This document shows positions 16,400-43,374 of a stretch of 64,000 bases of DNA, one piece after another. The notes under the pieces are model-generated. The model was not told where the DNA came from and searched no databases. It saw only the letters and a list, made by a program, of their open reading frames with translations. Position numbers and translations under genes: made by a program. This stretch comes from an uncultured Verrucomicrobiae bacterium (GTDB taxonomy: Bacteria; Verrucomicrobiota; Verrucomicrobiia; Limisphaerales; JAFGQR01): the NCBI GenBank assembly GCA_963788655.1, contig CAWBHS010000072.1, positions 288,001 through 352,000 on the forward strand, given 5' to 3'. Each line of letters opens with the position of its first letter. The stretch's first letter is position 1.

Positions 16400-16412
16400 T
16401 GCCAATTCAATC

Positions 16413-18436: not shown

Positions 18437-18454
18437 ACCGAAAGGATAACCCGC

Positions 18455-21832
<3,378 letters not shown>

Positions 21833-21880
21833 TCCCGAAGCCGACTGGCGGCGTCGTGTCCGCACGGTCGGCATCATCCA

Positions 21881-22943: not shown

Positions 22944-22965
22944 CGAACTGTTCGTCAACTCGATT

Positions 22966-26487: not shown

Positions 26488-26499
26488 GGTTTGAATTCG

Positions 26500-26515
26500 T
26501 GCATATCGTGTGCCG
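26500..26515 (-). promoter_or_regulatory. Putative sigma54 promoter, near-leaderless
   Basis: CGGCACACGATATGCA (GG-N10-GC); ATG 26487 follows 13 nt after the GC. Confidence 0.45.
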
Positions 26516-26875
26516 CCACTGTAGGGGAAACGCACGATTTGTCGCGGATAATTTCTCAACCGCCATCGTTTACTGCACTTCAGGTCATCCCCGTTGCTGC
26601 CCGAACAGTGCGGCCGCTGAACCGATCCCTATCCGGCCTCGGCAAGGTTTATGATTCCGACAACAACCTGGTGCCGACATCAGCCGCCGCCTCGGCGCTA
26701 GCCTGCGTGAGGTAGCGCGGGCTTTGGGGTTATCTTCTGGCGGCTGTTTTCTACTGACTCGCCGGCGCCAACCGGCTAGGCTGGGCGCATGATACGGCGA
26801 AAGCACAATGTCCGCTGTAAACTTCGCAGTCACTGCGTTGCCCGCGCAACTCACCCGCTTAATTCTTAACGACCT

Positions 26876-28366
26876 ATGATGACTCCTCTTCTGCCCCAAG
26901 TAACCCAGTTCCTTTCCTCCCAACCACTGAAGTTGTTTATCGGCGGCGAATGGACTGATGCCACCGGCGGCGCCACGCTCGAAACCTGCGATCCTGGCGA
27001 CGGCAACGTCCTTGCCAAGGTGGCCACCGGTGACCCAGCGGACATTGACCGCGCCGTGCAGGCCGCGCATGCCGCCTTCTTGAACAGTGGCTGGGCCACG
27101 ATGCCCGCCAATGATCGCGCCGTCATTTTGCACCGCTTGGCCGACCTGGTGGATAAGCAGCGGGATGTCCTCGCCCAAATCGAAGCGTTGGACGTGGGCA
27201 AGCCGCTGGCCGACGCGGCGGGCTTCGACATCCCGAACGTGGCGCAAACGCTGCGTTGGTATGCGGACCTATCCGTTCACGCGCGCCGGCGCGAACCCAT
27301 CGCCGTGGCGAATTATGAAGCCCGGCAGGTCCGGCTGCCTTACGGTGTTTGCGCGTTCATTTTCCCGTGGAATTTCCCATTGCTGCTGGTCGGGTGGGGC
27401 ATTTCTCCGGCACTGGCCGCCGGTAACACCGTGGTGATCAAACCCGCCGAGGACACGCCGTTATCGACTTTGTATTTCTGCCAACTGGCCGAGCAAGCCG
27501 GCGTGCCCAAGGGGGTGATCAACGTCGTCACCGGTTACGGTGAAACCGCCGGTGCGGCGCTGGCGCAGCATCCGGGCATCAAACGCATGTCGTTCACCGG
27601 TTCGCCCGAAGTGGGTAAATTGATCGCCGAAGCGTGCGGTCGCAATCTCGTACCGGCCAAACTCGAGCTCGGCGGCAAAGGCGCTGCGGTGGTGTTCGAC
27701 GACGTGGACGTGAAAGCCACTGCCCAGGCTTTGGCCGCCGCCGTCACCGCCAACACGGGGCAGGTTTGTTGCACGGCCACGCGTTGGCTGATCCACGAAA
27801 AGATTTTCGACGCGTTTGTCGAGCAAGCAACGTCGGCCTTGAAGGAGCGGAAGATTGGTCACGGCTTGGACGATCAAACCCAAATGGGCCCGCTGGTCAG
27901 CGAGAAACAACGCCGGCGCGTACTGGGCTATCTTGAACGCGGCGAACAGGAACAAGCCAAACCATTGCTGCCCGGCGGTGCGACCACTGTCACCGGGCAT
28001 GAAGGAGGGTTCTACGTGAAGCCGGCATTGCTTTCCGGTTCACCGGATAACGTCTGCGCGCGCGAAGAAATCTTCGGGCCGGTCGCCTACCTGATGCCGT
28101 TCAAAGCGGAAACTGACGCGGTGGCGCTGGTGAATCGCTCCACCTACGGCCTGGCGAACAGCGTGTGGAGCCAGAACCTCCACCGCGCCAATCGCGTGGC
28201 CGAAGCCTTGGTGGCCGGCAACAGTTGGATCAACGGTCACAATCTGTTTCCCCACGGCGTGCCCTACGGTGGGTGCAATCTCAGCGGTTGCGGCGGCGGG
28301 GTGCTGGGACCGGAGACGTATCTGGATTATCTTCGAGCCCAGTCGGTGGTCCGGCCGATACAGTAA
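26876..28366 (+). CDS. NAD(P)-dependent aldehyde dehydrogenase
   Basis: PWNFP, KPAEDTP, FTGSPEVG, LELGGK, catalytic GQVCC, EEIFGPV, YGLA. Confidence 0.95.
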   Translation: MMTPLLPQVTQFLSSQPLKLFIGGEWTDATGGATLETCDPGDGNVLAKVATGDPADIDRAVQAAHAAFLNSGWATMPANDRAVILHRLADLVDKQRDVLAQIEALDVGKPLADAAGFDIPNVAQTLRWYADLSVHARRREPIAVANYEARQVRLPYGVCAFIFPWNFPLLLVGWGISPALAAGNTVVIKPAEDTPLSTLYFCQLAEQAGVPKGVINVVTGYGETAGAALAQHPGIKRMSFTGSPEVGKLIAEACGRNLVPAKLELGGKGAAVVFDDVDVKATAQALAAAVTANTGQVCCTATRWLIHEKIFDAFVEQATSALKERKIGHGLDDQTQMGPLVSEKQRRRVLGYLERGEQEQAKPLLPGGATTVTGHEGGFYVKPALLSGSPDNVCAREEIFGPVAYLMPFKAETDAVALVNRSTYGLANSVWSQNLHRANRVAEALVAGNSWINGHNLFPHGVPYGGCNLSGCGGGVLGPETYLDYLRAQSVVRPIQ

Positions 28367-28457
28367 AGCTTCCGGTAATAAGAGGCTTGAAAGAATGAAG
28401 GCAGTGAGAGCAGCCATGGCTCCCTCAATGGATGCTGGAAGAAACCTACGAGGTGCG

Positions 28458-30346
28458 ATGAACTGGACCACATGCTTGGCAATCATCCTCGCGAGCATTG
28501 GTCTGGTCCTCGTATGCGGTGGCTGCAACAAACAGGAATCCAAACTGAGCCAGCTCAAGACCAAAGCCACTCAAGGCGATGCCGAGGCGCAATTCCAGCT
28601 TGGGAAGATTTATGACGACGGTCGGCTCGTTCCCAAGGATGGTATCCAGGCCTTTACTTGCTACCGCCAGGCCGCCGAACAAGGGCACGCGGAGGCGCAG
28701 TTTCGCGTGGCGTCCATGTATGCCAGCGGTTACGGCGTAACCCTGGACGAGCCGAATCATTGAAGTGGATGCGCCGGGCCGCCGAGAACGGCGTGACCAA
28801 AGCGCAATACAACCTGGGCGTTGACTTTTATCACGGGCGTGGCACCGCCAAAGATTTCAGCCAGGCCTTTAAGTGGTTTCAGAAAGCTTCGGCCAAAGGC
28901 GACCCCGACGCCCAAGCCAATTTGGGCAGCATGTATGCCGATGGTGAAGGCGTGGAGAAGAATCTCCAAAAGGCGCTGCCATGGTTTCAGCGTGCCGCTG
29001 ATCAAGGGCAGCCGGCGGCGCAGAACAACCTTGGACAACTTTATTTCAGTGGTGAAGCCGTCGCGACGAATCCGGTGGAGGCAGTGAAATGGTTCCGCAA
29101 AGCTGCGGAGCAGGGATTTGCGGTCGGACAATACAATCTGGGGACGGCCTATCACGAAGGCACCGGCGTGGAAAAGAATGATCAGACCGCGGTGGAATGG
29201 TTCCGCCGGGCCGCAAAGCAAAATCTGCCGCAGGCACAATACGCGCTGGCGGGCCTCTACCGCCGCGGCGAAGGGGTATCCGAGGACAGCCGCGAATCCT
29301 TTCAATGGCTCAAGCAGGCCGCCGCCCAGAATTTCGCGCCCGCCCAATTGAAACTGGGAATGAGTTACCTGGTAGGCGACGGCACCACTACAAATCTGGA
29401 TGAAGCCATCCGGTGGCTTCGCCGGGCCGCCGGGCAGAATGAGGCCGAAGCGCAGGGCACCCTCGCCTTCCTGTATTGTGAAGGAAAAGTGGTCGCACAA
29501 GACATGAATGAAGCCTTGAAATGGTTTCACCAAGCCGCCGATGCGGGCAACGCGGAGGCCGAACGTAATTTGGGGATTCTGTACCAGAAGGGTCAAGGAG
29601 TTGAAAAAGATCTGGTCGAGGCGACCAAGTGGTTTCGTCGCGCGGCTGAGCAAGGCGATCCCCAAGCCCAAAATCATCTGGCGAACCTCTACGAAAATGG
29701 AACCGGCGTGGAGAAGGATATTCAGGCCGCCATCAAGTGGTATCGTCAGGCGGCCGAGCAAGGGGATGCTGTCGCTCAAAACAACTTGGGCGCCATCTTT
29801 GGCAAGGGCGAAGACGTAGCCAAAGATCCACAACAAGCGCTCTTCTGGTATCGCAAAGCAGCGGACCAAGGCGTCGCCATGTCGCAATACAACATCGCTG
29901 AACTGTATGCCAACGGAAGCGGCGTGACCCAGGATATTGCGCAAGCCATCCAGTGGTACAAGCAAGCCGCCGAACAAGATTTCATCATGGCCCAAAACGT
30001 CCTGGCCAAGTTGTATTACCAGGGCGAGCGCGTCCCTAAAGACGAACAGCAGGCTGCCTATTGGTTCCAGCGGGCGGCTGAACATGGAGACGCCAATTCC
30101 CAAAATCTGCTCGGTTTGCTGTACGCCATGGGAGAAGGCGTGGAAACCAATTACGTCGAGGCCTATAAGTGGCTGGACATCGCCGCCGCCAACGGCCACC
30201 CCCATGCGTTGGCCAGCCGGGCGAAGGTTTCCTTGCAAATGGACCCGGACCAACTTCGGGAAGCCCGGCAACGCGCCAGAGAATTTCTGGACCGACAGCC
30301 GACCAATGCGCCGCCGGCTCCAGGGAAAGCCAAGCCAACTCCGTGA
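28458..30346 (+). CDS. Sel1-repeat lipoprotein (15 repeats counted; frameshift near 28750)
   Basis: Hydrophobic signal ending VCGGC (lipobox-like); 36-aa AQxxLGxxYxxGxGVxKDxxxAxxWxxxAAxQG repeats. Confidence 0.92.
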
Positions 30347-30479: not shown

Positions 30480-31949
30480 ATGTTCATAATGATGATAACG
30501 CCGGAGTGCGCTCCGGCAGCGAAGGTCGGCGGTCTGGCGGATGTGATCCACGGCCTGTCGCAGGAATTGGCCATCCGCGGCCATGCGGTGGAGATCATTC
30601 TGCCCAAGTACGACTGTATGCGGTACGACCGCATCCACGGTCTGGTGAAGACGTACAGTGACCTGTGGGTGCCGTACCATAACCAGTGGATTCACTGCGA
30701 CGTGTACTTCGGGTATGTGGACAGCTTGAAATGTTTCTTTATCGATCCGCACTCAGCCCACAACTTCTTCAATCGCGGCGCGTGTTACGGCCTCAAAGAT
30801 GACACGGAACGTTTCGCGTTTTTCTGCCGGGCCGCGTTGGAGTTCATGCTCAAGACCAACAAGCATCCGGACATCATTCATTGCCACGACTGGCAAACCG
30901 GCCTGGTTCCTGTGCTCCTCTATGAAACGTACCAGCAGTTGGGGATGACGCATCCACGGGTTTGCTACACGCTGCACAACCTCGGGCACCAGGGCATCCA
31001 CGGCGAGAAGATCCTCCGGCAGGTCGGCCTGAATCCCGGACCCCTCATGACCCCCGAACGCTTGTTGGACGACCGTCGGCCCGGCGCCATCAACTTGATG
31101 AAAGGCGGGATCGTCTATTCAAATTTTGTAACCACCGTTTCGCCCCGTTACGCGTCCGAAATTCATCACAGCCACTTGGGCATGGGGCTCCAGCGGATCC
31201 TGCACGTCCACCAGCAGAAATTCGGCGGCATCCTGAACGGCGTGGACTACACCGCGTGGAACCCGGAGATCGACGGCCACATTGCCCACCGTTATGGCCT
31301 GGGCAATTTGCAGGACAAATACCACAACAAGGGAGCCCTGCGCGCCCGGCTCTGGCTGCGCCACGATTTTAAACCGATCGTTTCCTTTGTCGGCCGGCTG
31401 GATTACCAGAAAGGGGTTGGTCTCATTCTGCAAGCAGTGCCCTATTGCTTGCAGCACGGTTGCCAGGTGGTCGTTTTGGGTTCGAGCCCGCATCGGAGCG
31501 TCAACGACGCCTTTTGGGGCCTCAAGCGGATGTTTAATAACCATCCCGATTGTCATTTGGAAATCGGGTACCACGAGGATTTGGCCCATTTGATTTATGC
31601 CGGTTCGGACCTGATCCTGGTGCCCAGCGAATACGAGCCGTGCGGTTTGACGCAGATCATTGGTTTGCGCTACGGCACCGTGCCGGTCGTGCGCAATACG
31701 GGTGGCCTGGCAGATACGGTTTTCGATGCCAACTACTCCCACCGGCCGTATCACGAACGGACGGGTTTTGTCTTCAACGACTACAATTGGCCCGGCCTGG
31801 AATCCGCGCTCAGCCGCGCCATCGGCTTGTGGTACAATTATCCGCAATATTTTCGAGAACTGATGGCCAACGGTATGCGTTACGATTTTTCCTGGAATTA
31901 CCCCGGCACGCATTACTTGAACGTGTATAATTACATCAAAGCGCCTTAG
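30480..31949 (+). CDS. glgA: ADP-glucose glycogen/starch synthase (GT5), GlgA2/SSIII-IV type
   Basis: ECAPAAKVGGLAD, PKYDCMRYD, IHCHDWQTG, TLHN, GILNGVD, GRLDYQKG, PSEYEPCGLTQ, TGGLADT. Confidence 0.95.
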   Translation: MFIMMITPECAPAAKVGGLADVIHGLSQELAIRGHAVEIILPKYDCMRYDRIHGLVKTYSDLWVPYHNQWIHCDVYFGYVDSLKCFFIDPHSAHNFFNRGACYGLKDDTERFAFFCRAALEFMLKTNKHPDIIHCHDWQTGLVPVLLYETYQQLGMTHPRVCYTLHNLGHQGIHGEKILRQVGLNPGPLMTPERLLDDRRPGAINLMKGGIVYSNFVTTVSPRYASEIHHSHLGMGLQRILHVHQQKFGGILNGVDYTAWNPEIDGHIAHRYGLGNLQDKYHNKGALRARLWLRHDFKPIVSFVGRLDYQKGVGLILQAVPYCLQHGCQVVVLGSSPHRSVNDAFWGLKRMFNNHPDCHLEIGYHEDLAHLIYAGSDLILVPSEYEPCGLTQIIGLRYGTVPVVRNTGGLADTVFDANYSHRPYHERTGFVFNDYNWPGLESALSRAIGLWYNYPQYFRELMANGMRYDFSWNYPGTHYLNVYNYIKAP

Positions 31950-31998
31950 GCGCCGGTATCAAGTGGCGGTGGCACCTTGTTGCCGCCGGGATGTGATA

Positions 31999-32138
31999 AA
32001 TGACCAATGTGCAATGACCAATGACCAGAGAATGCCCGATGACCAATGACCAGTTGGCCCGGGAAGGGTCGCCGGATTTCAAGGTGGAGCTTGGACATTG
32101 GTCCTTCCTTGGTGCTTGGGCATTGGCTATTGGGCCAT
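31999..32138. repeat. Inverted heptamer-array element, copy 2
   Basis: AATGACCAATGTGCAATGACCAATGACC...ATGACCAATGACC ... TTGGACATTGGTCC...TTGGGCATTGGCTATTGGGCCAT. Confidence 0.75.
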
Positions 32139-32180
32139 CCGGGTTTTTCGAGTCTTGGCGCCAGCCGGCGCGCAAGACCC

Positions 32181-32395
32181 GTCGAGCGTTGCCTTCCCCC
32201 TCACCCCGACCCTCTCCCTTGGGGAGAGGGAGCCCGTTCGCCGCGGACGGGAGCCCGCGGATGGCACTCAGACCTTCGAGACCGCTTTGCACAAAAGTCG
32301 AAGGGGCGGTCAATGCCACGGGCAGGTTCATATCAAATCGCAGCACCGCTGGCTGTTCCCTCTCCCTGAGGGAGAGGGTTAGGGTGAGGGGGAAC
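32181..32395. repeat. CCCTCACCCC/GGGAGAGGG REPIN, copy 1
   Basis: CCCCTCACCCCGACCCTCTCCCTTGGGGAGAGGG ... CCCTCTCCCTGAGGGAGAGGGTTAGGGTGAGGGG; collinear with 36141-36353. Confidence 0.85.
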
Positions 32396-32492
32396 CAGGC
32401 TCCCTTGGTCCAAATGGCCGTCAGGAAATTCAGCGGGTGGTCAAGCCTGGCGCGAAGCCGAAGGCTTCCCCCAACCAGCTCAGTAACAATCG

Positions 32493-35400
32493 ATGAACAT
32501 GGATAGTAGTTCGGGCAAAGTCGCAACAAAGGAATCGAGCGAGACGCAGACGGCTGCACACAATAGTCGCTCGAAAAACACCGCCACCATCACCACCCAG
32601 AGCGGGCTCGATTTGCAGGTGGAGACGTTGGCCCGCCAGGGCCAACTCGAAGTTTCGCTCCACGCGCCTGCCGGCAAACGTTGCGTTTTGCACTGGGGCG
32701 TTCGGCGCCAAATGCAGCAGGACTGGGCCGCGCCGCCGCAGTCGGTGTGGCCGCCGGACACGCAGCCAATGGGAGTGACCGCGGTGCAAACACCGTTCGC
32801 CAAACAGAATGGCCAGCTCGGCATCGACATTCGCATGGACCTTGCTGCGGACTACGCCTCGCTGGATTTTGTGATCTTCTTTCCGGACGAAAAGCGCTGG
32901 GACAACAACGGCGGCCGCAATTATCAGGTGGCTCTGACCAAGTCCAAACCGACGACCGATCCGCAGGCAGTCTTGCGGGCACGGTTGGGCGAAGAGGAAT
33001 TGCTTTTTGAACGCGCGTTCGATCTTGGCAACCAAGCAAAACTCGCGGTGGCCGTGGTCCGCACCGAGCAACAATATCGCTTCGAGGCGCTCACCAATCT
33101 CGGCGGACCGTTGCTGTTGCATTGGGGCATTGCGCGTCGGTCCCCGCGCGAGTGGCTGCTGCCGCCGGAGTCGATGCGCAATCACGTGACGACTGGCTTT
33201 GACGATCACGCGGTGCAAACACCCTTCGAAACGCAGGAAGGTTTCAACGCGCTCGCGCTCGCCGTCGCCGAGTCCGATGCGCCCCTGGGTTTGAATTTCG
33301 TGCTCAAACAAAACACGCCCGAGGGACGCTGGCTCAAGCATCGCGGCGGCAATTTCTACGTGCCGATCCACCAGGCCGCGACACAAGCCGGCGGCCAGGG
33401 TCTGGGCGAACTGGCTGGCCTGGCGGATGAAATCATCCAGGCCGAGACGGGACACAATTCCTGGACGTTGATGCATCGGTTCAATCTTTGTTACGACCTA
33501 TTGGACCGGGTCCAGCACAGTGTTGAAGGACAGGCGCTGCTTTATGTATGGCTGCGGTTCTCGGCCATTCGCCAGTTAACCTGGCAACGCAATTACAACA
33601 CCCAGCCACGCGAATTGGCGCACGCGCAAGACCGCCTGACGCAGAAGTTGGCCAACGTCTTTCGCAGCGAACCGGAAACGCGCCCGTTGGTTCGTTTGGC
33701 CCTGGCCACGGTGGGCCGCGGCGGTGACGGACAACGGGTGCGCGACGAAATCCTGCACATCATGCACCGGCACAACATCAAGGAAGTGACCGGCCATTTT
33801 CTCGAAGAATGGCACCAGAAGCTGCACAACAACACCACGCCCGACGACGTGGTGATTTGCGAAGCCTATCTCGAATTCCTTTACAGCAACGGCAATCGCG
33901 ACCGCTTCTATCAGACCCTGGAAAACGGCGGCGTGACCAAGCAGCGGTTGGAGAGCTTCGAACGGCCCATCCGGACCGAGCCGCAATTCGCCGGTCACCT
34001 CAAAGACGCGCTGATTCCTGACTTCCAGAATTTCTTGCGCGTGCTCAAATCCGTTCATTCCGGAACCGATTTCGAAACCGCCGTCAATGCCGCGCGCGGC
34101 CAGTTGGATGGCGACCTGCAAGGACTGCTGCACTACCTGGGCGAACACCGCAACGATCCGCCCGAGGGCGTGGTGAACTTGGTGAACCAAATCACCGACG
34201 CGCGGCGCCGCTTGTCCAATCGGCTGAACCAGGACGGCGGCTTGCGCGAATTACTCTACCTCGATCTGGCCCTGGAACAACTGCTGCGTGTGTCCGTGGA
34301 ACGGCATGTCCACTTGCGCTTCAATGGCGATCAGTTGGTCGATCTCATTGCCCGCGCGCTGGAGAACGTAACGCTGACTTACGAAGATCCCGAACTGGCT
34401 GCCTGTGCGCGTCACTGGGAACGATTGCAAGGCCTGCCACGCTTCAATGCCGATTGGGCGTTGCACGCCAAGTCCGTCGGTGACCGCATCGCGCGCGCTT
34501 TGACCACTTGGATTGATCGTTTCTATCAACTGCTCCAACCCAAGGCCGAATATCTCGGTGCCGGATTCCAGGCCGAGCCGTGGACGATCACGCTCTTCAG
34601 CGAAGAAGTGGTGCGCGGAAGCAGCCTGGGCTTCGTGGTGTCCATGCTGTTGCACCGCCTGGACCCGCTCTTGCGCAAGGCCGCCAACATCGGCGCCTGG
34701 CGCATCATCAGCCGCGGCGGCGGGGGCGGTCAAATTGAAGTGGTGGACAAGTTGGGCTCGATTCAAAACCAGCGCTTTGACAAACCCACCGTCGTTGTGA
34801 CGGACAAAGTGATGGGCGACGAAGAACTGCCCGACGGGGTCACCGCAGTCATCGCTCCGGACGTGACCGATATCGTGTCGCACGTGGCGGTGCGGGCGCG
34901 CAACTCGAATGTCCTGTTTGCATCCTGCCATGATCCGGAAATGTTGGCGCACTTGAAGTCGCTTCGCGGGCATCATGTTCATCTGACGGTCAATCCGGCC
35001 GGCGACGTGATCGTGCAGGAAACCGAGGCGGATGCGCCGGCGGCTGCGATCGAGTCGGTTCAGGAACGAATTTCACTCACGCCACGACAGTTCACGAAAT
35101 ACGCCATTACGCATGAAGAATTCCGCGAGGAACTCGTGGGGGGCAAGTCATGTCACCAGGCAGAACTGCGCGGCAAGTTGTCCGATTGGATTCATCTCCC
35201 GGCCTCGGCGGCGATTCCCTTCGGCGTCTTTGAAAAGGTATTGGGGTTACCCGCCAACCAGGAGTTGGCCAGGCGTTGCCAGGAGTTAACTCGACAAGCG
35301 GAAACCGGCAACACCGAAGCACTGGCCGACCTGCGGCGAACAGTTCTCCAATTGACCGCCCCCGACGAATTGCCGGACACCTTGCGCCAAGGCATGACCA

Positions 35401-36068
35401 AGGCCGGTCTGGATTGGCCTGCGGATTGGGACAAGACCTGGCGTTGCATCAAACAGGTCTGGGCTTCGAAGTGGAATGACCGCGCGTTCCTCAGCCGCAA
35501 GAAACTCGGCATCTCGCACGACCAACTGTTCATGGCGGTGCTCATCCAGTCGGTGGTGCCGGCGGATTATGCGTTCGTGGTCCATACGGTGAATCCGTCC
35601 ACCGGCAACGCCAACGAACTCTTCGCCGAAATCGTGCTGGGCCTTGGCGAAACCCTGGTCGGCAATTATCCCGGACGCGCGTTGAGTTTTGTGGTGGACA
35701 AAACGTCCGGCGCGCAGACGTTGCTGTCGTATCCCGGCAAAAGTATTGGCCTCTACGGCAGTGGCTTGATTTTCCGTTCTGACTCCAACGGTGAAGATCT
35801 GGCGGGATTCGCCGGCGCCGGCCTCTACGAAAGCGTCTTGCTTCAACCACCCCGCGTCGTGGAATTGGATTACACCGAAGAGCCGCTGGTGTGGGACGAG
35901 CGTTTCCGCCAGGACCTGCTCCAGACGATTGCGAAGATCGGGTTGGAAGTCGAAAAAGCCTTTGGCGCGCCGCAGGACATTGAAGGCGCGGTAGCGCGAG
36001 GCAAATACTTCGTTGTGCAAACGCGGCCGCAGGTGGGACTGGAGTCAACGACCGGCAGCAAGGGCTAA
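32493..36068 (+). CDS. Alpha-glucan, water dikinase (GWD1-like) with two N-terminal CBM45-like modules
   Basis: Two LHWG...W..PP...QTPF modules; TLMHRFN, WLRFSAIRQLTWQRNYN.QPREL, GRGGDGQRVRDEIL, EEWHQKLHNNTTPDDVVICEAYL, phospho-His DIVSHVAVRARN, VWASKWNDRA, GLGETLVGNYPGRA, FRSDSNGEDLAGFAGAGLYES, QDIEG, VQTRPQ. Confidence 0.93.
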   Translation: MNMDSSSGKVATKESSETQTAAHNSRSKNTATITTQSGLDLQVETLARQGQLEVSLHAPAGKRCVLHWGVRRQMQQDWAAPPQSVWPPDTQPMGVTAVQTPFAKQNGQLGIDIRMDLAADYASLDFVIFFPDEKRWDNNGGRNYQVALTKSKPTTDPQAVLRARLGEEELLFERAFDLGNQAKLAVAVVRTEQQYRFEALTNLGGPLLLHWGIARRSPREWLLPPESMRNHVTTGFDDHAVQTPFETQEGFNALALAVAESDAPLGLNFVLKQNTPEGRWLKHRGGNFYVPIHQAATQAGGQGLGELAGLADEIIQAETGHNSWTLMHRFNLCYDLLDRVQHSVEGQALLYVWLRFSAIRQLTWQRNYNTQPRELAHAQDRLTQKLANVFRSEPETRPLVRLALATVGRGGDGQRVRDEILHIMHRHNIKEVTGHFLEEWHQKLHNNTTPDDVVICEAYLEFLYSNGNRDRFYQTLENGGVTKQRLESFERPIRTEPQFAGHLKDALIPDFQNFLRVLKSVHSGTDFETAVNAARGQLDGDLQGLLHYLGEHRNDPPEGVVNLVNQITDARRRLSNRLNQDGGLRELLYLDLALEQLLRVSVERHVHLRFNGDQLVDLIARALENVTLTYEDPELAACARHWERLQGLPRFNADWALHAKSVGDRIARALTTWIDRFYQLLQPKAEYLGAGFQAEPWTITLFSEEVVRGSSLGFVVSMLLHRLDPLLRKAANIGAWRIISRGGGGGQIEVVDKLGSIQNQRFDKPTVVVTDKVMGDEELPDGVTAVIAPDVTDIVSHVAVRARNSNVLFASCHDPEMLAHLKSLRGHHVHLTVNPAGDVIVQETEADAPAAAIESVQERISLTPRQFTKYAITHEEFREELVGGKSCHQAELRGKLSDWIHLPASAAIPFGVFEKVLGLPANQELARRCQELTRQAETGNTEALADLRRTVLQLTAPDELPDTLRQGMTKAGLDWPADWDKTWRCIKQVWASKWNDRAFLSRKKLGISHDQLFMAVLIQSVVPADYAFVVHTVNPSTGNANELFAEIVLGLGETLVGNYPGRALSFVVDKTSGAQTLLSYPGKSIGLYGSGLIFRSDSNGEDLAGFAGAGLYESVLLQPPRVVELDYTEEPLVWDERFRQDLLQTIAKIGLEVEKAFGAPQDIEGAVARGKYFVVQTRPQVGLESTTGSKG

Positions 36069-36140
36069 GGCTTCAGGTGATGAAACGGACAGTTGCAACT
36101 CAGTCTTTCGGCGTGGCACACGTTGCGCCCAGGCTGGGTT

Positions 36141-36353
36141 GTCGAACGCGTTGTTCCCCCTCACCCCAGCCCTCTCCCTTGGGGAGAGGGAGCCCGTTTG
36201 GCCCGCCTCGAAAACAACGAATGGCACTCCGACCGTCGATGCCGCTTCGCGCGAAAGTCGAATGGGCGGTCAATGCCACGGACCAGCTCGAATCAAAGAG
36301 CAGTGCCTTCGGCTGTTCCCTCTCCCTGGGGAGAGGGTCAGGGTGAGGGGAAG
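36141..36353. repeat. CCCTCACCCC/GGGAGAGGG REPIN, copy 2
   Basis: Same arms and shared spacer words (ATGGCACTC, AAAGTCGAA.GGGCGGTCAATGCCACGG, GGCTGTTCCCTCTCCCTG) as 32181-32395. Confidence 0.85.
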
Positions 36354-36380
36354 CACAACAACTAAACTCCCCGCATTTTC

Positions 36381-39300
36381 ATGATCCCCATCGGCAACCA
36401 GACTTCATTCTCCGCGGCCACGCCCACCGTGCCGTTTGATTACGCCCGCGCCAATGACTTTGATGCGTTTGAATGGTTTCCCGACAAGAAACCCGACGGC
36501 GCCGGTTGGGACGAAAGCGACTTGGATGAATCGCGGCGCCGGCACCTGGCCGAACTGGCGCGGGCGCAAAACATGCGCGTGTCCGTTCACGCCCGTTGGC
36601 AAGCCGATCCGCTGCGACCTGGTGCCCAACCGCTACTACTGAGGGATCTTGGACTGGCCCGCGATTTGGGCGCCGTGCTGGTCAATATTCACTTCAACCA
36701 CGAGCAAGGAGTCGAAGCATACGTTCAAGCGGTGATGCCGTTTGTTCGCCAAGTTGGTGAGGTGGGACTACAGCTTGCCATCGAGAATACCCCGCATCAT
36801 GCGCCGGAACAGTTTAACGAGTTGTTTGCGTGCTTGCAGGCGCTCGGCCGTGAAACCGTTCAGCACGTGGGAATGTGTTTTGATCTCGGCCACGCCAACC
36901 TGTGCGCGGCAACCCGTAACGATTATTTGCAGTTCCTCGACCGACTCGATCCGCGCGTGCCAATCATCCATTTGCATTTGCACGAGAATTGGGGTGATGC
37001 TGACAGCCATTTGCCGCTGTTCACCGGTCCCGCGGGGCGGAATGATGCAGGCATTCGCGGCCTGCTGGAACGGTTGCGTCAGCGTCAATATGCCGGCTCG
37101 ATCATCCTCGAACAATGGCCCCAGCCGCCTTCGCTGCTGAACCACGCGCGCGACCGGTTGCTTGACTTGCTTAATTCCTGTAGCAACGGGCGTGAGTCCG
37201 CTCATACTTCTCGTGCATCTGACGTAGCGGCGTCTCGTGAGAGCGCCGCTGACTTGAGCGAAACAAATTTGCAGCGCTCTCACGAGACGCCGCTACGCTC
37301 AGAGGTGGACGATTTCCAGGGCAAACTGGTCGCCGCTGATCAACAGCGCCGCAGTTGGCGGGAGAAGCTGGATTTCGTGCAGGGCCTGTTCACGGACGAC
37401 GCGACACCGCTCACGTCGGAGCAATTGGTCGATATTGCCATCTACCTTCGTTTCCTGGGCACCGGTGAGATCGTATGCGTCGAGGACGGACGGCACTTCC
37501 GTCCGGCCCACCATGCGCGCATGGCCCTGGAGATTCAGCGACGGTTGGCCGAACTGACCACGCCCGACACGGCGTTTATCGCGCGCAAGATTTATCCCTG
37601 GTTGCCCTCCTCGGCCCGGAGCTTTCAGCGCGCTGAGCCACTGACGCGGATTCGCGACATCGCGCATCGCAACGACATTCCCCAGGACCTGAAACGCGAA
37701 ATCAAGCACACCCTCCAAAACAAGCTGCATCGCTGTGCGGGGCCCGAAGACCTGGTGACCTCCACGAAACTGTTGGAACGAATCACCGCGCCGGCGGCCG
37801 ATTACGCGTCGGACTTTGTCGAGCAATTCAAAATTTTCCATGAAGAACTGAAAGAGTTTTTCAACGCCCAATCCTTGGACGAACGGCTGGATGCGCTGTT
37901 GCCCCACGTCGGCGCCAAGGAAACCGAATTGATCCAGCGGTTTCACAAACAGAAAACCAGCACAGCCCAGCCGGCGCTACGGGACGCCTTCAAGTCGCTG
38001 ACCGAATTGCGCTACTGTTTCCTGGAGGGCGCCGCCAAGTGCAAGCCGGAAGAAAAGCAGGAGTTCCTGCTGGCGGACATTGGGCTCGAAGATTTTGCCT
38101 TCGTCCTGTTGAGCAAAATCTTCAATGTCTTCGACGTTGCCAGGACCAAGGCCAAATGGGAACCGCTGCTGGAAACGCTGCGGTTGACCATCACCAACCT
38201 CGCCCTGAGCCGCGTCCAGCCTGAGGAATGCGACGCGCTGGGAGCCGAACTGCGGACTTGGAGCGCTGAACTGAATCCAAAAGACCGCGAACAACTGTTA
38301 CGTTTGAAAGCCACTGCGGACCGTTGTCGGCGTCTGGCGGAAGCTTACAGCGACCGGATTGCCGCGCTGTTCTTTCGGCGGGCCCGGGATCTGGGTCGCG
38401 CGCTGGAGGTGCCCGCGCATGCCATCCAGGTGTACTGCGACTCCGAAATCCGCGGCCATATCGTTTTCCAACTGGCGAAGCTGGTTTCCAGTCTCTTGCG
38501 TCGCGTCCGCGAGCAACTCGAATTGCCCGCCTGGGATGTGCTGGTTGCTGGGCAGGCGAGGGGCCGGTTGCGGATCACCAACCTGCTGGACGATGTGGGC
38601 CAGGATTTGCGCGAGCCCACCGTGGTGATTTTGAGTAACGCGGAAGGCGATGAAGAAATCCCGCAAAGCGTCACCGGCATTGTGCTGGGACACGGTATTC
38701 CGCATTTGTCGCATCTCGGAGTGCGCGCCCGTCAGGCCGGGGTGGTGCTGGTCACTTGCGAGGAGCCGGAAACGTTCAAGCAACTGGAGTGCTTCGATGG
38801 CCAATCGGTCTTGCTGTCGGCGACTCCCGAAAACGTAGAATGCACACCGGCCAAAAGCTCCGCCGCTACGACAAGCAGGGCTCCGGGCAGACCAGTGCTA
38901 GTTCCCGAAGTGCGCCTCGATCCCAAACGGCCTTGGCTGCCCCTGGAACAGGTCACTCCGGAATCCGGCGGGGGCAAAGCAAACGGCGCCCGGCGTTTGG
39001 CCGAATTGGCCCGCCGGAATGATGCCGGATTCAACACTCCCACCGGCGGCGTGATTCCTTTTGGCGTCATGGAAGCGGCGTTGCGCGCCAGGCCAGAGGT
39101 GGAAGCGGAATATGGCAAGCTACTCCAACAGGCCACCGGGAAGTCGGCTGACACGTTGACCGCGACAGCGGAACGGTTGCGCAGTTTGATCCAGCAGTTC
39201 GAGGTGCCCGAAGCGATTGCCAAAGCGATTGCCCAGACATTCAAGCCAGACGCCCGACTCATCGTCCGATCGAGCGCCAATTGCGAGGACTTGCCGGAAA

Positions 39301-39903
39301 TGGCCGGCGCCGGCCTCTATGAATCCGTCGCGAATGTGGCGCCCGCGGACGTAGCTGACGCCGTGCGGACGGTGTGGGCGTCGCTCTGGACCCGACGGGC
39401 CGCCTTAAGCCGTCAGCAAGCCGGTATTCCGCACGAACAGGCGCATATCGCAGTGCTCATCCAGGAGTTGCTCACGCCGGACTGCTCGTTTGTCCTGCAC
39501 ACCGTCAATCCGATCAATCACGACGCCGATGAAGTCTATGCCGAACTGGCGATTGGGCTGGGAGAAACACTCGCGTCGGCGGCTATTCGCGGCAATCCGT
39601 ATCGATTGATTTGCCCCAAAAGCTCCAAGGCAGTCACCACACTGGCCTTCGCGAACTTCAGCGAGTCGCTCTGGCCTGATCCCGCCGGCGGTCTGCAACG
39701 CAAAACGGTGGACTATTCGCGCGTCGAGTTGTCGCGAAACGCCGAAGCTCGCCAGCAACTCGGAAGACGCCTGGCGGCCATTGGCCGGTTGGTCGAAGCA
39801 GAATTGAAATCCCCCCAGGACATCGAAGGCGCGGTAGTTGGCGGCAGACATTTACCTCGTGCAAGCACGTCCACAACAGGGGCTGGGTAGCTATGAGCGC
39901 TAA
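36381..39903 (+). CDS. Phosphoglucan, water dikinase (PWD/GWD3-like) fused to an N-terminal xylose-isomerase/AP-endonuclease-2-like TIM barrel; frameshift near 39845
   Basis: TIM motifs IENTP, CFDLGHA, HLHLHEN, DSHLP, ILEQW. PWD motifs SWREKL, EDGRHFRPAHHA, PLTRIRDIAHRNDIPQDLKREIKHTLQNKLHRCAGPEDL, phospho-His PHLSHLGVRARQ, VRSSANCEDL..AGAGLYES, GLGETLAS, QDIEG. The alternative frame gives DIYLVQARPQ...* ending at 39903. Confidence 0.92.
37223..37297. repeat. GTAG-type REP doublet inside the PWD coding sequence
   Basis: Perfect 24-bp inverted repeat CGTAGCGGCGTCTCGTGAGAGCGC (37223-37246) / GCGCTCTCACGAGACGCCGCTACG (37274-37297). Confidence 0.85.
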
Positions 39904-39937
39904 CTCAGGCATGTTACCTATGGATACAGAAGGCGAT

Positions 39938-40054
39938 GTCGGACCGGCGTCCCGCGTGTCTCGAATTTCCCAACGACGCTCGACGTATCGCGGAACTGGC
40001 TGCAACGGTTGGGAGCCGCTGGTCATTCGGGACAGCCGGGACGGCTGTCCTACG
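39938..40054. repeat. GTAGGACAG-family REP doublet, copy 2
   Basis: GTCGGACCGGCGTCCCGCGTGTCTCG ... GGGACAGCCGGGACGGCTGTCCTACG; inverted relative to 6417-6534 and shares spacer sequence with it. Confidence 0.8.
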
Positions 40055-40088
40055 GGCGTGTTCGCTCATTTGGATTTCCAATAGATTC

Positions 40089-41273
40089 ATGCGCCCCTCG
40101 CTTCCCCAGCATCCGCCAACCCTCGGGTTGTTCGAGAAACGGATCGACGGTGACGATTGCCTGATGGATTTGGCCCGGCTGCGTTTTCAGCAGGCTGGTA
40201 TGGGCACGGAAATGCACGCCGGCACACCCGCAGAATTGGATTGGGTCATGCAATGGCGTCCCTCGCCAGCGACACCTGTCGTGGTTCACTTGCCGCGGCA
40301 CTTCGATCTGACCGACGAGCACACGCGAGCCCAAGTTCAGGGAATGGCTGCTTACTCTGCCGGCCGGATTCATGGATTCGTGCTGCACGACGGCGCCGAT
40401 ATGGCGGTGCGCGCCGCAGACTATCACCGCGCGGCTCAGGAAATGGAATCGCGACTGGCGCGCATCCAGCAATGCCCGCTGCTGTTCATCGAATACGCGG
40501 CGGGCTTGGAACCGGATCTTTTCGCCGGTTTCTTTTCCTCCATCCGCAACTTGTCCCGTTTGAGCGCCTGCATCGACATCGGCCATGTAGGCATTCGGCA
40601 GGCGCGGAAAGCGTTTGCGCAGGTGCATCCCGGCGAAGATGTATGCGCGCTGAAGTCCAATCCTTCCCGCCTGCCGCAACTCATGCCGGACGTGGAAGCC
40701 GCAGTGCGAACGGCTTTACCAACCGTGCTGCACCTGATCGAAACGCTCGGTGCGCTGGGTAAACCGATTCACTTCCATTTGCACGATGGCCACCCACTTT
40801 CCACCTTCAGCCCGTTCGGCGTCTCGGATCACTTGAGCTTTTTCCAGGAGATGCCGCTGCCCTTCGATTGCCATGACCAGCAATCGTCGCCGTTGATGTT
40901 TGGTCCGAACGGCCTTTCCCGAATTGTCGCCAAAGCGATGGAGGCCATCGGTCGCGAACGGGTTTCGTTCACATTGGAAATTCATCCGACCTTCGAACGC
41001 CTGGCGTTGGGCGACGCGGCCAACCTCTTTGAGCATTGGCGTGACCGGACCAACGCCGAGATGATGAACCACTGGCTCGCGGTGCTCAGTCGAAACCATG
41101 AACTACTGCTGGCGGCAATCAGCAAGCGGGCGGCCGATGCGTTGGTGGCGCACTTGATACCTCGCCCGACGCCGTTGGTTTTGAACTCGCCCAGGCGACA
41201 GATAATGGCTCCGGTGATTCCTTGCGGATTCGCAACAATTTTGGAATCGCGTGCGATCAGTCCGCCGTTCTGA
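40089..41273 (+). CDS. Xylose-isomerase/AP-endonuclease-2-like TIM-barrel metalloprotein
   Basis: VVHLP, VLHD, FIEY, CIDIGH, HFHLHDGH, SDHLSF, FTLEIH. Start placed at ATG 40089, after the REP. Confidence 0.75.
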   Translation: MRPSLPQHPPTLGLFEKRIDGDDCLMDLARLRFQQAGMGTEMHAGTPAELDWVMQWRPSPATPVVVHLPRHFDLTDEHTRAQVQGMAAYSAGRIHGFVLHDGADMAVRAADYHRAAQEMESRLARIQQCPLLFIEYAAGLEPDLFAGFFSSIRNLSRLSACIDIGHVGIRQARKAFAQVHPGEDVCALKSNPSRLPQLMPDVEAAVRTALPTVLHLIETLGALGKPIHFHLHDGHPLSTFSPFGVSDHLSFFQEMPLPFDCHDQQSSPLMFGPNGLSRIVAKAMEAIGRERVSFTLEIHPTFERLALGDAANLFEHWRDRTNAEMMNHWLAVLSRNHELLLAAISKRAADALVAHLIPRPTPLVLNSPRRQIMAPVIPCGFATILESRAISPPF

Positions 41274-41318: not shown

Positions 41319-43374
41319 TCACTTGGTTTTTGACTTCTTTCCGGTCTGCTTTTCTTTCGCACTGGAGACTGATACGGGCACCGTCGTGGTCGAGCTGTTT
41401 CCGGAGGCGTCAGTGCAGCGGACGGTCAGGGTGTAAACGCGATCCGCGCTTTTGCTGCTCTCCGCGCGCAGATTGGCTGTGAGCGGGCCCGTGAGCTCCC
41501 AGTCAGGACTGGTGTTGTCGCCCTTGCCAGTAGCCGGTTCACTGCTGTTGATGGCAATGAGCTCGACTGCCAGCGTCGGATCGCAATTGTCCGATACGGC
41601 GACGTTCAAGGTGACCGCCACCATCTTCTTATTGGCAGGCCACAAAGTGGGCTGATCGACGGTTACGCTGGCGATGACCGGAGCAGTGACATCTTTCACT
41701 GAGAGCGTCATCGTGCATACGCTGCGATTGCCGGCAGCATCCGTGACGGCCAGTTCGACCGGATAATCTCCCGAGACCCACCAACGTTCCGGCGACTGGA
41801 CTTTGGCTGAACACCAATGATTCCGCCGGGGTGCAGCCATCGGTCGCAGTTGCGAGCGAAATCAAATCAGGAATGGTTGCCTGGCAAGCATCATTCGCCG
41901 GCAGTTCCGAAGTAGTGGGGCAAACGATCTGCGGGGGCGTGGTGTCCACAACGGTGACCGTTACCGTATCCTCGGACGATTCACCCGCCGGGTCGGTGAC
42001 TTTCAACGTAAAGGTGTTAATGCCATTGCCCACCACCACGGGAATCGCGACCTCGGTTCCCAGCAAGTGGCCGTCGCAATACCATTCATAAGTCAGCGCA
42101 TCGCCGTCCGGATCCTGCGACGCGGCGCCATCGAGCCTTACCGTTGTGCCCGCGCCGGCGCATTCGACCTGTTGATCGGGGCCCGCATCGGCGACGGGAG
42201 GATTGTTGGCTGGGGCCCGATTCAAGGAGAGCAGAAACCATTCAGCGGAGCGGTTGATCACGCCATAGCCCAAGATGTGGCCGCCATCACTGATGTTGTA
42301 GGCGGCGAGCAGTTCCCATCCGGAGCCGGGAGGCAAGAGCGTGTTGAGGTCCACCATGGTCCCGTTTTCCCAGAGAAAGGCGTGACCGGCACCAGTGGCA
42401 TCTGCCGATTCACCGACCACCTGGCCGGATTGATTCATGTCATAGACACTGCTGTAAGATCCACCAAGAGTTTCCAAATCCGTCAGGGCCCCGTCCGCGT
42501 AAATGAAACCGTGCCAGCCCCGGGACGCTGTAAGCGAATCTCCGCTGACCTGCCCTTTTCGATTGATCGCCACCGGGCTGGTGTAGCCTCCGCCCAAGGT
42601 CCCCAAGTCGTGCAAGTTACTGCCATCGTAGAGAAAACCGTGCGTTTCCCGATTCTCTGCCGTGTTCGCAAAACCGGTGATCCAACCGTCGTCATTGATA
42701 TCCACCGCCGAACTATAAGTGCCGCCCAGCGTGCCCAGGTCGGTCATGGAACCATCCCGCCACAGAAACGCGTGCGTCTCCTGGTTGTCGGTTGTGGTGG
42801 ATTCCCCCACCACCCAACCGCGGCCGTTCAGTCCGTAGCACGAACTGTAGGCCCCGCCCAAGGTTCCCAAATCGATCATGCTGTGGCCGTCATAGAGAAA
42901 AGCGTGCGTATCGTAGTTGTTGGCGATCACTGAATCACCGGCTACCCAACCGGCGTCGTTGATGGCCACGGCGGAACAGAACCACCCACCCAAACTGCCC
43001 AGACTTTCCATGCGACCATCGCGAAATAGGAACGCATAAGTGGCGGCGTCATTCGCCACGGCGGAATACCCGGCAACTTGTCCGCTCGCGTTGATGGCGA
43101 AGGCGGCGCTGTAGGAACCACCCAACGTGCCGAGGTCCATCGTCATCGCCTCGCTAAAAACGTAGGCGTGATCTTCGGCATTGCCCAAGGTCATGGAATC
43201 TCCGGCCACCACCCCTTGCGCGTTCACCGCGTAGGCCGTGGCATAGCTGCCGCCCAAGGAGCCCACGCGGACGATGGTCGGCGTCTGGCTCTGAGCGCGA
43301 GTTTGAACAAGAAGAACGGCGAGAACTGCGATCCAAGTTCCCACCCCATACAACTGGTTGGCTTGGTGTTTCAT
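41319..43374 (-). CDS. Secreted protein with HAF-type extracellular repeats, PKD and HYR-like domains (frameshift near 41775)
   Basis: Signal peptide; repeated DLGTLGG.YS.A..IN..G.V.G.S......HAFL; NNPPVADAGPDQ; DTTPP; LWPANKKMV...RVYTLT..TDASGN. Confidence 0.88.

Follow-up and report, generated by a model that had tools for sequence, protein, structure and literature searches.

Introduction

The window analysed here (64,000 nucleotides of an uncultured Verrucomicrobiae bacterium; assembly GCA_963788655.1, contig CAWBHS010000072.1, positions 288,001 to 352,000) raises the question whether a bacterium can add phosphate to its storage glucan and remove it again. The machinery of glucan phosphorylation is described as not known in prokaryotes in a 2026 review (PMC13666283), and GWD is treated as a hallmark of starch-storing eukaryotes (2026 preprint 10.64898/2026.09.25.754361). 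Bacterial GWD homologues were already noted in 2018 in the legend of Fig. 9 of PMC6260743, and the novelty of a bacterial GWD implied by the original prediction was thus overstated. A literature search delivered no paper on a module of GWD, PWD and barrels, or on the barrels themselves. We propose, with a probability of roughly 55%, that the locus encodes a cytoplasmic system which writes and erases phosphate on a storage alpha-glucan.

Organization of the locus

Four co-oriented ORFs on the plus strand were recovered by an ORF check where the original prediction had placed them. It did not mention the TIM barrel (residues 1-265) that opens the PWD ORF, and the two endonuclease-IV-type (EndoIV-type) barrels, the most novel part of the locus, were overlooked. 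The features are as follows.

30480..31949, + strand: GlgA, GlgA2 / starch synthase III-IV type (GT5), 489 aa (NCBIfam NF001905)
32194..32394, no strand: host repeat, 38-nt inverted arms 125 nt apart (spacer blastn against the genome)
32493..36068, + strand: GWD orthologue, 1191 aa (Pfam, PDB profile match, tree, motifs)
36152..36355, no strand: second copy of the host inverted repeat (spacer blastn against the genome)
36381..37175, + strand: TIM_A barrel, N-terminus of the PWD ORF (AP_endonuc_2, PF01261, E 4e-20)
37296..39903, + strand: PWD orthologue, frameshift near 39846 (Pfam, PWD clade)
40089..41273, + strand: TIM_B barrel (predicted model and homologues), ORF open from 39936

As assembled, the PWD-type ORF including TIM_A spans 36381-39890 (1169 aa). 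The last ORF (39936-41273) has 445 aa; a start at ATG 40089 would give 394 aa and is probably the correct one, because 20 homologues begin near there. The spacers of 543 bases (glgA-GWD) and 312 bases (GWD-PWD) are filled with repeats. Their inverted repeats occur in 110-150 copies spread over 43-64 contigs of the genome, with 381 blastn hits on 64 of the 115 contigs for the first spacer and 202 hits on 43 contigs for the second. More repeated DNA lies close to 31995-32050, upstream of the 32194..32394 repeat.

The two dikinases

The GWD ORF contains two Ig_N_CWD1 domains, GWD1_pHisD and PPDK_N (Pfam), in the order of two CBM45-type domains, a helical central domain (about 301-732), the phospho-His domain and a C-terminal ATP-grasp domain. 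Its central domain, of a kind found in glucan dikinases alone, matches potato GWD1 (9ha9) with E 5e-94 over 430 residues. The catalytic His797 lies in an SHVxVRARN motif with conserved surrounding residues, and this His motif is kept in 131/131 bacterial GWD rows. The residues named for StGWD1 in its structure paper (H992, E971, E900/E901/R904, R923/W931, V989/L990; PMC13553574) have counterparts in the bacterial GWD motifs. In the trees the protein falls into the GWD clade, apart from PWD, with support 100.

The PWD ORF contains AP_endonuc_2, GWD1_pHisD and PPDK_N. The central domain, the phospho-His domain (His778) and the ATP-grasp domain each carry PWD-type motifs, placement is in the PWD clade with support 100, and the His motif is kept in 42 of 46 bacterial PWD rows. 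A PDB profile search with PWD matched no solved PWD. On these sequence features the ORF is classed as a PWD orthologue whose N-terminus differs. The GWD-type and PWD-type motifs quoted in the original prediction were found and align with the matching eukaryotic types, and the phospho-His domain precedes the nucleotide domain in both kinases, as predicted. It is practically certain that GWD and PWD are orthologues of the plant enzymes.

PEP synthase and rifampin phosphotransferase were considered as identities for the two kinases and rejected: the best score was 129 bits against cut-offs of 598-1700, and the nucleotide domain, N-terminal in those enzymes, is C-terminal in GWD and PWD. A grouping with these enzymes or with PPDK, named beforehand as grounds for abandoning the assignment, appeared neither in the scores nor in the trees. 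It is very improbable that the dikinase scaffold now serves an acceptor other than glucan, such as a small sugar or antibiotic in the manner of rifampin phosphotransferase (Rph). The ATP-grasp domains do match the PEP synthase and Rph families, but far under the cut-offs and in the nucleotide domain only, whereas the central acceptor-binding domain is of the GWD/PWD type and alpha-glucan enzymes are the neighbours in all phyla.

The last family-wide motif of PWD, IYLVQxRPQ, is encoded in the following frame, between about 39847 and a stop codon at 39903; the C-terminus of the 1169-aa ORF is therefore wrong as assembled. The frameshift is probably an assembly error. Decay of PWD in this genome, with a real frameshift and only GWD and the barrels working, is improbable: it would fit the out-of-frame motif and the dispensability of PWD in many relatives, but malQ, treS, a Sel1 gene and an MFS gene of the same window and one glgB elsewhere in the genome are also frame-split, a picture that fits an indel-prone assembly. 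Moreover, the remaining ORF is unbroken with host-typical codons, and in a close relative a contig of 249 bases covers the site, with 6 differing letters and one gap at some point of its length.

Native or transferred genes

The view that GWD and PWD are native bacterial genes was borne out: their codon use and the repeats around them are those of the host, and relatives occur in several phyla (143 GTDB genomes). The patchy distribution (3/301 in the class), the lack of the genes in the single same-genus genome searched (93% complete) and an assembly contamination of 5.6% might raise the suspicion of contamination, of a chimeric assembly or of genes acquired very recently from a plant or alga. 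This explanation has a negligible probability and is refuted by synteny, the same four-gene order being repeated in independent assemblies (4/80 GTDB loci and 5/80 metagenome loci). In addition, the contig carrying the module is 473 kb long with even GC, the two genes rank at the 53rd and 2nd percentile for codon distance among 299 large ORFs, the nearest relatives in the trees are from Verrucomicrobiota, and the bacterial clades equal those of eukaryotes in depth.

That the pair bears on the origin of GWD and PWD holds in part. Given the depth of the bacterial clades, the question is open again, after a reading in 2018 as transfer into a few bacteria; the pair alone does not decide it, and AU tests on the direction of transfer gave p 0.41 and 0.83. 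It appears unlikely, though worth stating, that GWD and PWD split in bacteria, that eukaryotes took over the kinases and replaced the barrels by CBM20 and DSP phosphatases, and that a full reversible cycle on a starch-like polymer exists in at least six phyla, with a new phosphatase class of one barrel each for C6 and C3 phosphate.

The two barrels

TIM_A is an AP_endonuc_2 barrel which occupies the CBM20 position of PWD or forms a separate gene after GWD. Its predicted model (pLDDT 95.8) gave VIA Z values of 25.8 with MJ1311, 24.1 with AsfvAP and 22.9 with TTHB071. MJ1311, the top fold match, was deposited as a tagatose-epimerase-like protein. Nine residues (H70, H104, E135, D168, H171, H199, D208, H210, E244) are invariant in 55/55 sequences. 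Eight Zn ligands are listed for AsfvAP (PMC7076025); invariant residues of TIM_A meet 7 of them, the 7 within the aligned stretch, one being gap-shifted. TIM_A is thus a TIM barrel in which the whole His/Glu/Asp ligand set of the three-metal EndoIV type is present.

TIM_B has no Pfam hit of its own; its homologues match PF01261 with E 0.005-0.0008, and its profile matches that of TIM_A with 95% probability. A sequence search found no match to a solved family member. In Foldseek the predicted model (pLDDT 92.8) was closest to AsfvAP and M. tuberculosis EndoIV, and its VIA Z of 19.1 for the EndoIV-type fold is tied with sugar isomerases. Invariant in 28/28 sequences are H68, H101, E136, D164, H167, H231, D248, H249 and E298 (numbered from 40086), with D-H where EndoIV has D-x-H.

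Since an invariant three-metal ligand set is kept in TIM_A, and a putative one in TIM_B, the barrels are candidate glucan phosphatases; TIM_A may act on glucan C6 phosphate and TIM_B may act on C3 phosphate. The EndoIV-type barrel fold is also used by sugar epimerases, isomerases, lyases and the MbnB oxidase. It is conceivable, at rather long odds, that the dikinases phosphorylate glucan and that the barrels are not simple phosphatases. Their reaction might then be the cleavage of a phospho-maltodextrin, the opening of a diester or cyclic phosphate, or the epimerisation or isomerisation of a phosphorylated sugar; or they might mainly bind phosphoglucan, as CBM20 would. Folds within Z 1-3 of EndoIV include those of sugar-phosphate epimerases, IolE/IolI, 3-keto-glucoside lyases and C-deglycosidases; EndoIV and CbiR, the latter a weak hit (E 2e-8), are known to cleave diesters, not monoesters; and the position of TIM_A is that of CBM20. 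Against this, each barrel family keeps nine putative metal ligands without exception, which exceeds the needs of a binding module; TIM_A occurs as a separate gene in the absence of PWD and tracks GWD rather than PWD, and the UlaE epimerase has no equivalent of the second His of TIM_A (His104) in the alignment. Removal of glucan phosphate by the barrels, in place of SEX4/LSF2, is favoured by a modest measure.

Co-occurrence and distribution

GWD and PWD lie among alpha-glucan genes, in many phyla (neighbourhood survey). Of the order, 301 genomes were surveyed; TIM_A was found in 22/24 genomes with GWD and 0/277 others. These counts include related genomes not independent of each other and rest on TIM profiles built from loci of several of these same genomes. 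In both GWD genomes lacking TIM_A, GWD is cut by a contig end. TIM_B occurs in 9 genomes of the order (n=301), which are the 9 that have PWD. A PWD-type second match is absent in 16 of the 24 GWD genomes, one of which proved to have a cut PWD; the two-step pair is therefore optional.

In 80 GTDB loci, which overlap the 301-genome pairing counts, TIM_A is present in 60/70 loci with room; for the remaining 10/70, it lies elsewhere in 6/6 genomes checked. TIM_B is present in 26/27 PWD loci with room and in 1/28 loci without PWD, and the genome of that one has PWD. The 80 metagenome loci gave TIM_A in 39/49 with room (10/49 without adjacent TIM_A) and TIM_B in 17/18 with PWD and 0/18 without. Fusions of the types TIM_A-PWD, PWD-TIM_B, TIM_A-PWD-TIM_B and TIM_B-GH13 were seen. 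A kinase-phosphatase fusion risks a futile cycle unless regulated.

Glucan synthase and polymer type

GlgA scores 854 bits with NF001905 (cut-off 560); its best PDB match is Arabidopsis SSIV (6gne, E 2e-123), with E. coli GlgA at E 5e-74. The genome's glycogen kit comprises glgC, two intact and one split glgB, two phosphorylases, three GH57 and the GlgE route. A genome search (genome 86% complete) found no isoamylase/GlgX gene, and no dual-specificity phosphatase (DSPc) exceeded the Pfam cut-off in the genome.

A semi-crystalline polymer is rather less likely than not. With a chance a little short of even, the substrate is instead soluble glycogen or maltodextrin, on which phosphate tunes branching, solubility or turnover; this would displace only the starch-like part of the proposal. 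The glycogen kit is complete in the genome, with GlgX not found, and 10 of the 24 GWD genomes of the order have no SSIV-like synthase. Glucan phosphate lowers the affinity of branching enzymes, a bacterial one included (PMC13011383). On the other side, an SSIV-like synthase is present in 14/24 GWD genomes versus 11/277 others, both CBM45-type domains are retained in GWD, and according to the preprint 10.64898/2026.09.25.754361 eukaryotic GWD correlates with semi-crystalline glucan and some Verrucomicrobia accumulate starch-like particles.

Proposed cycle

In the write-and-erase system, the SSIV-like GlgA would make alpha-1,4 chains from ADP-glucose, long ones to judge from its family. GWD would bind the glucan through its two CBM45-type domains and, following plant GWD1, transfer the ATP beta-phosphate to His797 and then to glucosyl C6; the plant enzyme is active on E. 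coli glycogen (PMC13666283). In some lineages, this one included, PWD would add phosphate via His778 to pre-phosphorylated chains, presumably at C3. The phosphate would loosen chain packing, so that GH13, GH57, GH77 and phosphorylase could degrade the glucan; genes for these enzymes are neighbours of the module in relatives and are present at other sites of this genome. Finally, the C6 phosphate would be hydrolysed by TIM_A, the companion of GWD, and the C3 phosphate by TIM_B, the companion of PWD, each through a three-metal centre. Phosphorylation of the glucan is highly probable, and the order C6 then C3 is reasonably likely.

Both kinases are conserved and linked to glucan genes in Verrucomicrobiota, Nitrospirota, Desulfobacterota, anammox Planctomycetota and other groups. 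Each is paired here with a putative metal-binding barrel that may remove the phosphate, a combination pointing to reversible phosphorylation of the storage glucan in some bacteria. TIM_A and TIM_B are small, expressible candidates for a second, non-DSP route of glucan dephosphorylation; if active, they would be a new means of editing starch phosphate at defined positions, and phosphoglucan turnover could be modelled in bacteria.

Comparison with known systems

Plant GWD1 (R1/SEX1, EC 2.7.9.4; StGWD1, PDB 9HA9/9QVI) shares with the bacterial GWD the five-domain order CBM45-CBM45-central-His-ATP, the catalytic His motif with nearby acidic and basic residues, and the clade. The bacterial protein has no transit peptide and no DUF7067 linker between the binding domains, reads LFASC in place of CFATC, and its gene is followed by an EndoIV-type barrel gene. 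Plant and algal PWD/GWD3 (EC 2.7.9.5) has the PWD-type motifs and clade in common with bacterial PWD; an N-terminal CBM20, present in eukaryote-type rows, is replaced by TIM_A, TIM_B is often fused or next to the bacterial PWD, and this copy has a C-terminal frameshift in the assembly. PEP synthase, PPDK and rifampin phosphotransferase have ATP-grasp and phospho-His domains in common with GWD and PWD, and differ in domain order and acceptor domain.

Glucan phosphatases remove C6 and C3 phosphate so that degradation finishes (PMC13666283, section 3.1). SEX4, LSF2 and laforin are dual-specificity phosphatases, whereas the barrels, of unrelated fold and chemistry, have no DSP domain and have only this proposed role in common with them, a functional analogy. 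With the EndoIV-type barrels (E. coli Nfo, AsfvAP 6KHY, TTHB071 3AYT, MJ1311 3WQO, CbiR), TIM_A and TIM_B have the fold (Z 19-26) in common at just 13-24% identity, and TIM_A also the metal-ligand set, for which TIM_B has candidate residues; both lie among genes of glucan metabolism rather than DNA repair.

Gene features

Four co-oriented open reading frames lie at the positions that the original prediction had assigned to them:

30480-31949, GT5 glucan synthase (GlgA)
32493-36068, same strand, GWD: 1191 aa, Ig_N_CWD1 twice, then phospho-His and, at the C-terminus, PPDK_N (domain search)
36381 onwards, same strand, PWD: 1169 aa, N-terminal AP_endonuc_2 barrel (TIM_A), PWD-type motifs, a phospho-His domain and PPDK_N
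39936-41273, same strand, second endonuclease-IV-type TIM barrel (TIM_B), with a probable start at 40089

The synthase belongs to NCBIfam subfamily NF001905 (854 bits) and, among solved structures, matches Arabidopsis starch synthase IV best (E 2e-123, against E 5e-74 for E. coli GlgA); its group is named GlgA2/SSIII/IV in a passage of PMC6086201. The assignment of the two large proteins to GWD and PWD is borne out by their domains and motifs, by the match of GWD residues 301-732 to the central domain in the crystal structure of potato GWD1 (E 5e-94), and by a GWD/PWD split with support of 100 in all trees, one window protein falling on each side. As had been read from the sequence, the phospho-His domain precedes PPDK_N in both dikinases according to the domain search. 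The catalytic residues are His797 in GWD and His778 in PWD. An identity as PEP synthase or rifampin phosphotransferase was rejected, as both dikinases are far from the cut-off of either family. A secreted starch-degrading system was also rejected, the translations being without a hydrophobic leader (judged by eye).

The PWD frame is lost near 39846, ahead of the last motif of the family, which resumes in the next frame and runs to 39903. Several other genes of the assembly are also frame-split (malQ, treS, Sel1, MFS and one glgB), which makes an indel in the assembly the more probable cause. In a close relative, a contig of 249 bases covers the site with one gap. A sequencing-run look-up listed no RNA holder and two DNA runs with shares of 0.05-0.06, which speak neither for nor against the frameshift. 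Frame-split intervals in the window are 18486-19832, 22966-25105, 28269-30346, 41319-43374, 43946-45204 and 45281-46334, holding treS, malQ, Sel1-repeat, PKD/repeat protein, MFS and DUF2961 genes; this many split genes point to an indel-prone assembly.

Native status, distribution and synteny

The contig measures 473 kb, in a genome of 8.96 Mb that is 86% complete and even in GC. Among 299 large ORFs, the codon distance of GWD ranks at the 53rd percentile and that of PWD at the 2nd. The spacers hold a host repeat with 110-150 genome copies. Its copies at 32194-32394 and 36152-36355 have long inverted arms flanking a partly conserved core of 125-140 nt, and the repeat could represent a small mobile element of the non-autonomous kind.

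A GWD relative is encoded in 143 of 204 GTDB pattern matches, and the best 80 of these 143 genomes include Verrucomicrobiota, Nitrospirota, Desulfobacterota/deltaproteobacteria, Scalindua, Anammoxibacter, Myxococcales, Nitrospinota and Omnitrophota. The GC of the loci spans 0.41 to 0.70. Many JGI homologues carry automatic labels as alpha-glucan or phosphoglucan water dikinase. The spread is patchy: GWD was found in 3/301 class genomes and in 24/301 order genomes; among 251 genomes from the phylum to which the Myxococcales genome belongs, that one alone has it. GWD, TIM_A, TIM_B and the synthase are all absent from the one same-genus genome searched.

The search for synteny in relatives recovered the order GlgA, GWD, TIM_A-PWD, TIM_B in 4/80 GTDB loci (L006, L007, L008, L012) and in 5/80 metagenome loci (L121, L140, L152, L156, L164). 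The view that the genes are native to the bacterium is thus upheld by host-range codon use, even GC, the host repeat in the spacers and recurrent synteny. Contamination was rejected on the length of the contig, its even GC, the host repeats and the same order in other assemblies. The module is real, native and widespread.

Pairing of dikinases and barrels

According to the gene maps, GWD is followed by TIM_A, which is a gene of its own where PWD is missing and is fused to PWD where PWD is present. TIM_B follows PWD or is fused to it; some loci have a TIM_B-GH13 fusion. The pairing was counted in GTDB, metagenome and order sets, which are not independent because the genomes are related, the loci partly shared and the profiles built from GTDB loci. 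The 80 GTDB loci include 10 without room after GWD, leaving 70 to be scored for TIM_A, which is present in 60; TIM_B, for which six PWD loci lack room, occurs in 26/27 PWD loci with room and in 1/28 without PWD. The genome of this single exception has PWD elsewhere. Ten loci are without adjacent TIM_A, and in 6/6 checked it is encoded elsewhere in the genome. The 80 metagenome loci gave 39/49 for TIM_A, and for TIM_B 17/18 with PWD and 0/18 without; L087, a locus with TIM_B at the contig end and PWD not visible, was excluded. Among 301 order genomes TIM_A is found in 22/24 with GWD and in 0/277 others, GWD being truncated at a contig end in both genomes that miss it. Nine order genomes carry TIM_B: the eight in which a PWD-type His domain was found besides that of GWD, and one whose contig opens with the end of PWD.

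Triple fusions TIM_A-PWD-TIM_B were seen at L048:12684-17150 and L049:3277-7782 and in P0252, a representative protein from the profile search; the representatives P0242, P0250, P0280, P0281, P0313, P0317 and P0327 are PWD-TIM_B fusions lacking TIM_A.

Fold and metal ligands of the barrels

The predicted models have a pLDDT of 95.8 (TIM_A) and 92.8 (TIM_B), and the two barrels are related by profile (95%). The TIM_A model is closest to MJ1311 (Z 25.8, rmsd 2.5, 236 aligned), the AsfvAP endonuclease (Z 24.1, rmsd 2.8, 250 aligned) and TTHB071 (Z 22.9, rmsd 2.5, 224 aligned), with sugar epimerases just behind; MJ1311 and endonucleases IV are also its top sequence-profile matches. Eight Zn ligands are given for AsfvAP in the part of PMC7076025 that treats them. 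Seven of these fall inside the aligned stretch and meet H70, H104, E135 (gap shifted), D168, H171, D208 and H210 of TIM_A, which together with H199 and E244 are invariant in 55/55 sequences. Endonuclease IV has nine ligands. The epimerase UlaE has no His in the H104 column. Nine such residues are also invariant in TIM_B (28/28), which differs in having D-H where the endonuclease IV-type pattern is D-x-H. Foldseek places AsfvAP and M. tuberculosis EndoIV first for TIM_B, and in VIA the EndoIV type is tied with isomerases (Z 19.1, rmsd 3.8, 253 aligned, vs 19.0). The TIM_B profile gave chance-level matches alone against PDB sequences (E about 1), and its closest atlas clusters are without names. 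No dual-specificity phosphatase domain scored over cut-off in the genome.

Proposed function and nature of the glucan

By analogy with the plant enzymes, GWD would phosphorylate the glucan at C6 and PWD then at C3. In plants the phosphate must come off before starch degradation can finish, as stated in section 3.1 of PMC13666283. Here TIM_A would erase the mark of GWD and TIM_B that of PWD; we put the chance that the barrels remove these phosphates at somewhat better than even (about 0.55-0.6). They are a directly testable candidate for a new phosphatase class.

Neighbours of the loci include GH13, GH57, GH77, phosphorylase and GT4/GT5 genes. The polymer may be starch-like, since an SSIV-like synthase occurs in 14/24 order genomes with GWD vs 11/277 others, but the window's genome also carries glgC, a GlgE route, a pair of phosphorylases and two glgB genes that are intact. 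Although its glgB-like genes number three and its glgC-like genes two or three, GlgX/isoamylase gave no match at E 1e-20 in this 86%-complete genome. A passage of PMC13011383 reports that glucan phosphate reduces the affinity of branching enzyme. The 423-aa GH13 and 394-aa GH57 that neighbour GWD in relatives are located here on another contig, C9 (L081:6208-10294), where a small CBM48 protein separates the two. This GH13 is a distant GlgE/alpha-amylase relative whose family also matches the glucanotransferase domain of the eukaryotic debranching enzyme.

Other features of the window:

16347-25105 (+), another cluster for alpha-glucan, lying 5 kb upstream: GlgE, TreS-maltokinase, DHH phosphoesterase, MalQ
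21881-22843, the DHH-family phosphoesterase, inside the maltose-1-phosphate operon
25315-26559 (-), esterase, probable leader peptide, CBM48-like domain at the N-terminus

The GlgE-MalQ cluster is not conserved beside GWD in the 80 GTDB loci.

Phylogeny

The profile search yielded 150 representatives, and once locus proteins were added, 231 of 265 candidates reached full coverage; rooted tests used hand-picked sets of 58 and 54 rows. Source-labelled eukaryote rows are limited to Blepharisma, two Stentor and two MMETSP/EukProt proteins, the other eukaryote labels being drawn from CBM20 or DUF7067 domains, N-terminal extensions and tree position; 10 GWD rows carry no label. Proteins close to the bacterial profile are over-represented in the sample. 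The window GWD and PWD adjoin Verrucomicrobiota rows. FastTree nests bacterial GWD within eukaryotic GWD, whereas IQ-TREE under LG nests eukaryotic within bacterial GWD, and under the mixture model two bacterial clades (96, 99), green GWD and the remaining eukaryotic GWD part in a four-way fork. In AU tests monophyly was not rejected for bacterial GWD (p 0.41), eukaryotic GWD or eukaryotic PWD (p 0.83). On origin, the GWD and PWD clades hold in all trees, but the tree methods conflict on the direction of transfer. Tree placement and monophyly tests indicate that the bacterial genes are old, with no recent pick-up from plants; recent plant-to-bacterium transfer is ruled out by the tree results.

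Among the representatives, P0381 (2496 aa) contains GWD-type His domains and PPDK_N stretches, two of each. Many CBM20-PWD proteins that lack a transit peptide and measure about 950-1100 aa (P0268, P0282 and the P0279-P0388 group) form clades outside the green lineage by their inferred labels, which suggests that PWD is broad among non-green eukaryotes.

Comparison with known systems

The literature searched, with subscription journals mostly outside it, holds no description of a bacterial GWD/PWD operon or of these barrels. A figure legend of 2018 (PMC6260743) names lateral transfer as a possible source of GWD for some bacteria. Prokaryotes are without known glucan phosphorylation machinery according to a passage of a 2026 review (PMC13666283), and parts of a 2026 preprint (10.64898/2026.09.25.754361) link GWD to starch in eukaryotes and mention starch-like particles for some Verrucomicrobia. 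The string 'bacteri' is absent from the main text of the GWD1 structure paper (PMC13553574). Bacterial GWD and PWD run counter to a current textbook statement. Residues named for potato StGWD1 in a portion of that structure paper have conserved counterparts in the window GWD. The window genes are orthologues of GWD and PWD, and the bacterial variant is marked out by its pair of endonuclease-IV-type barrels.
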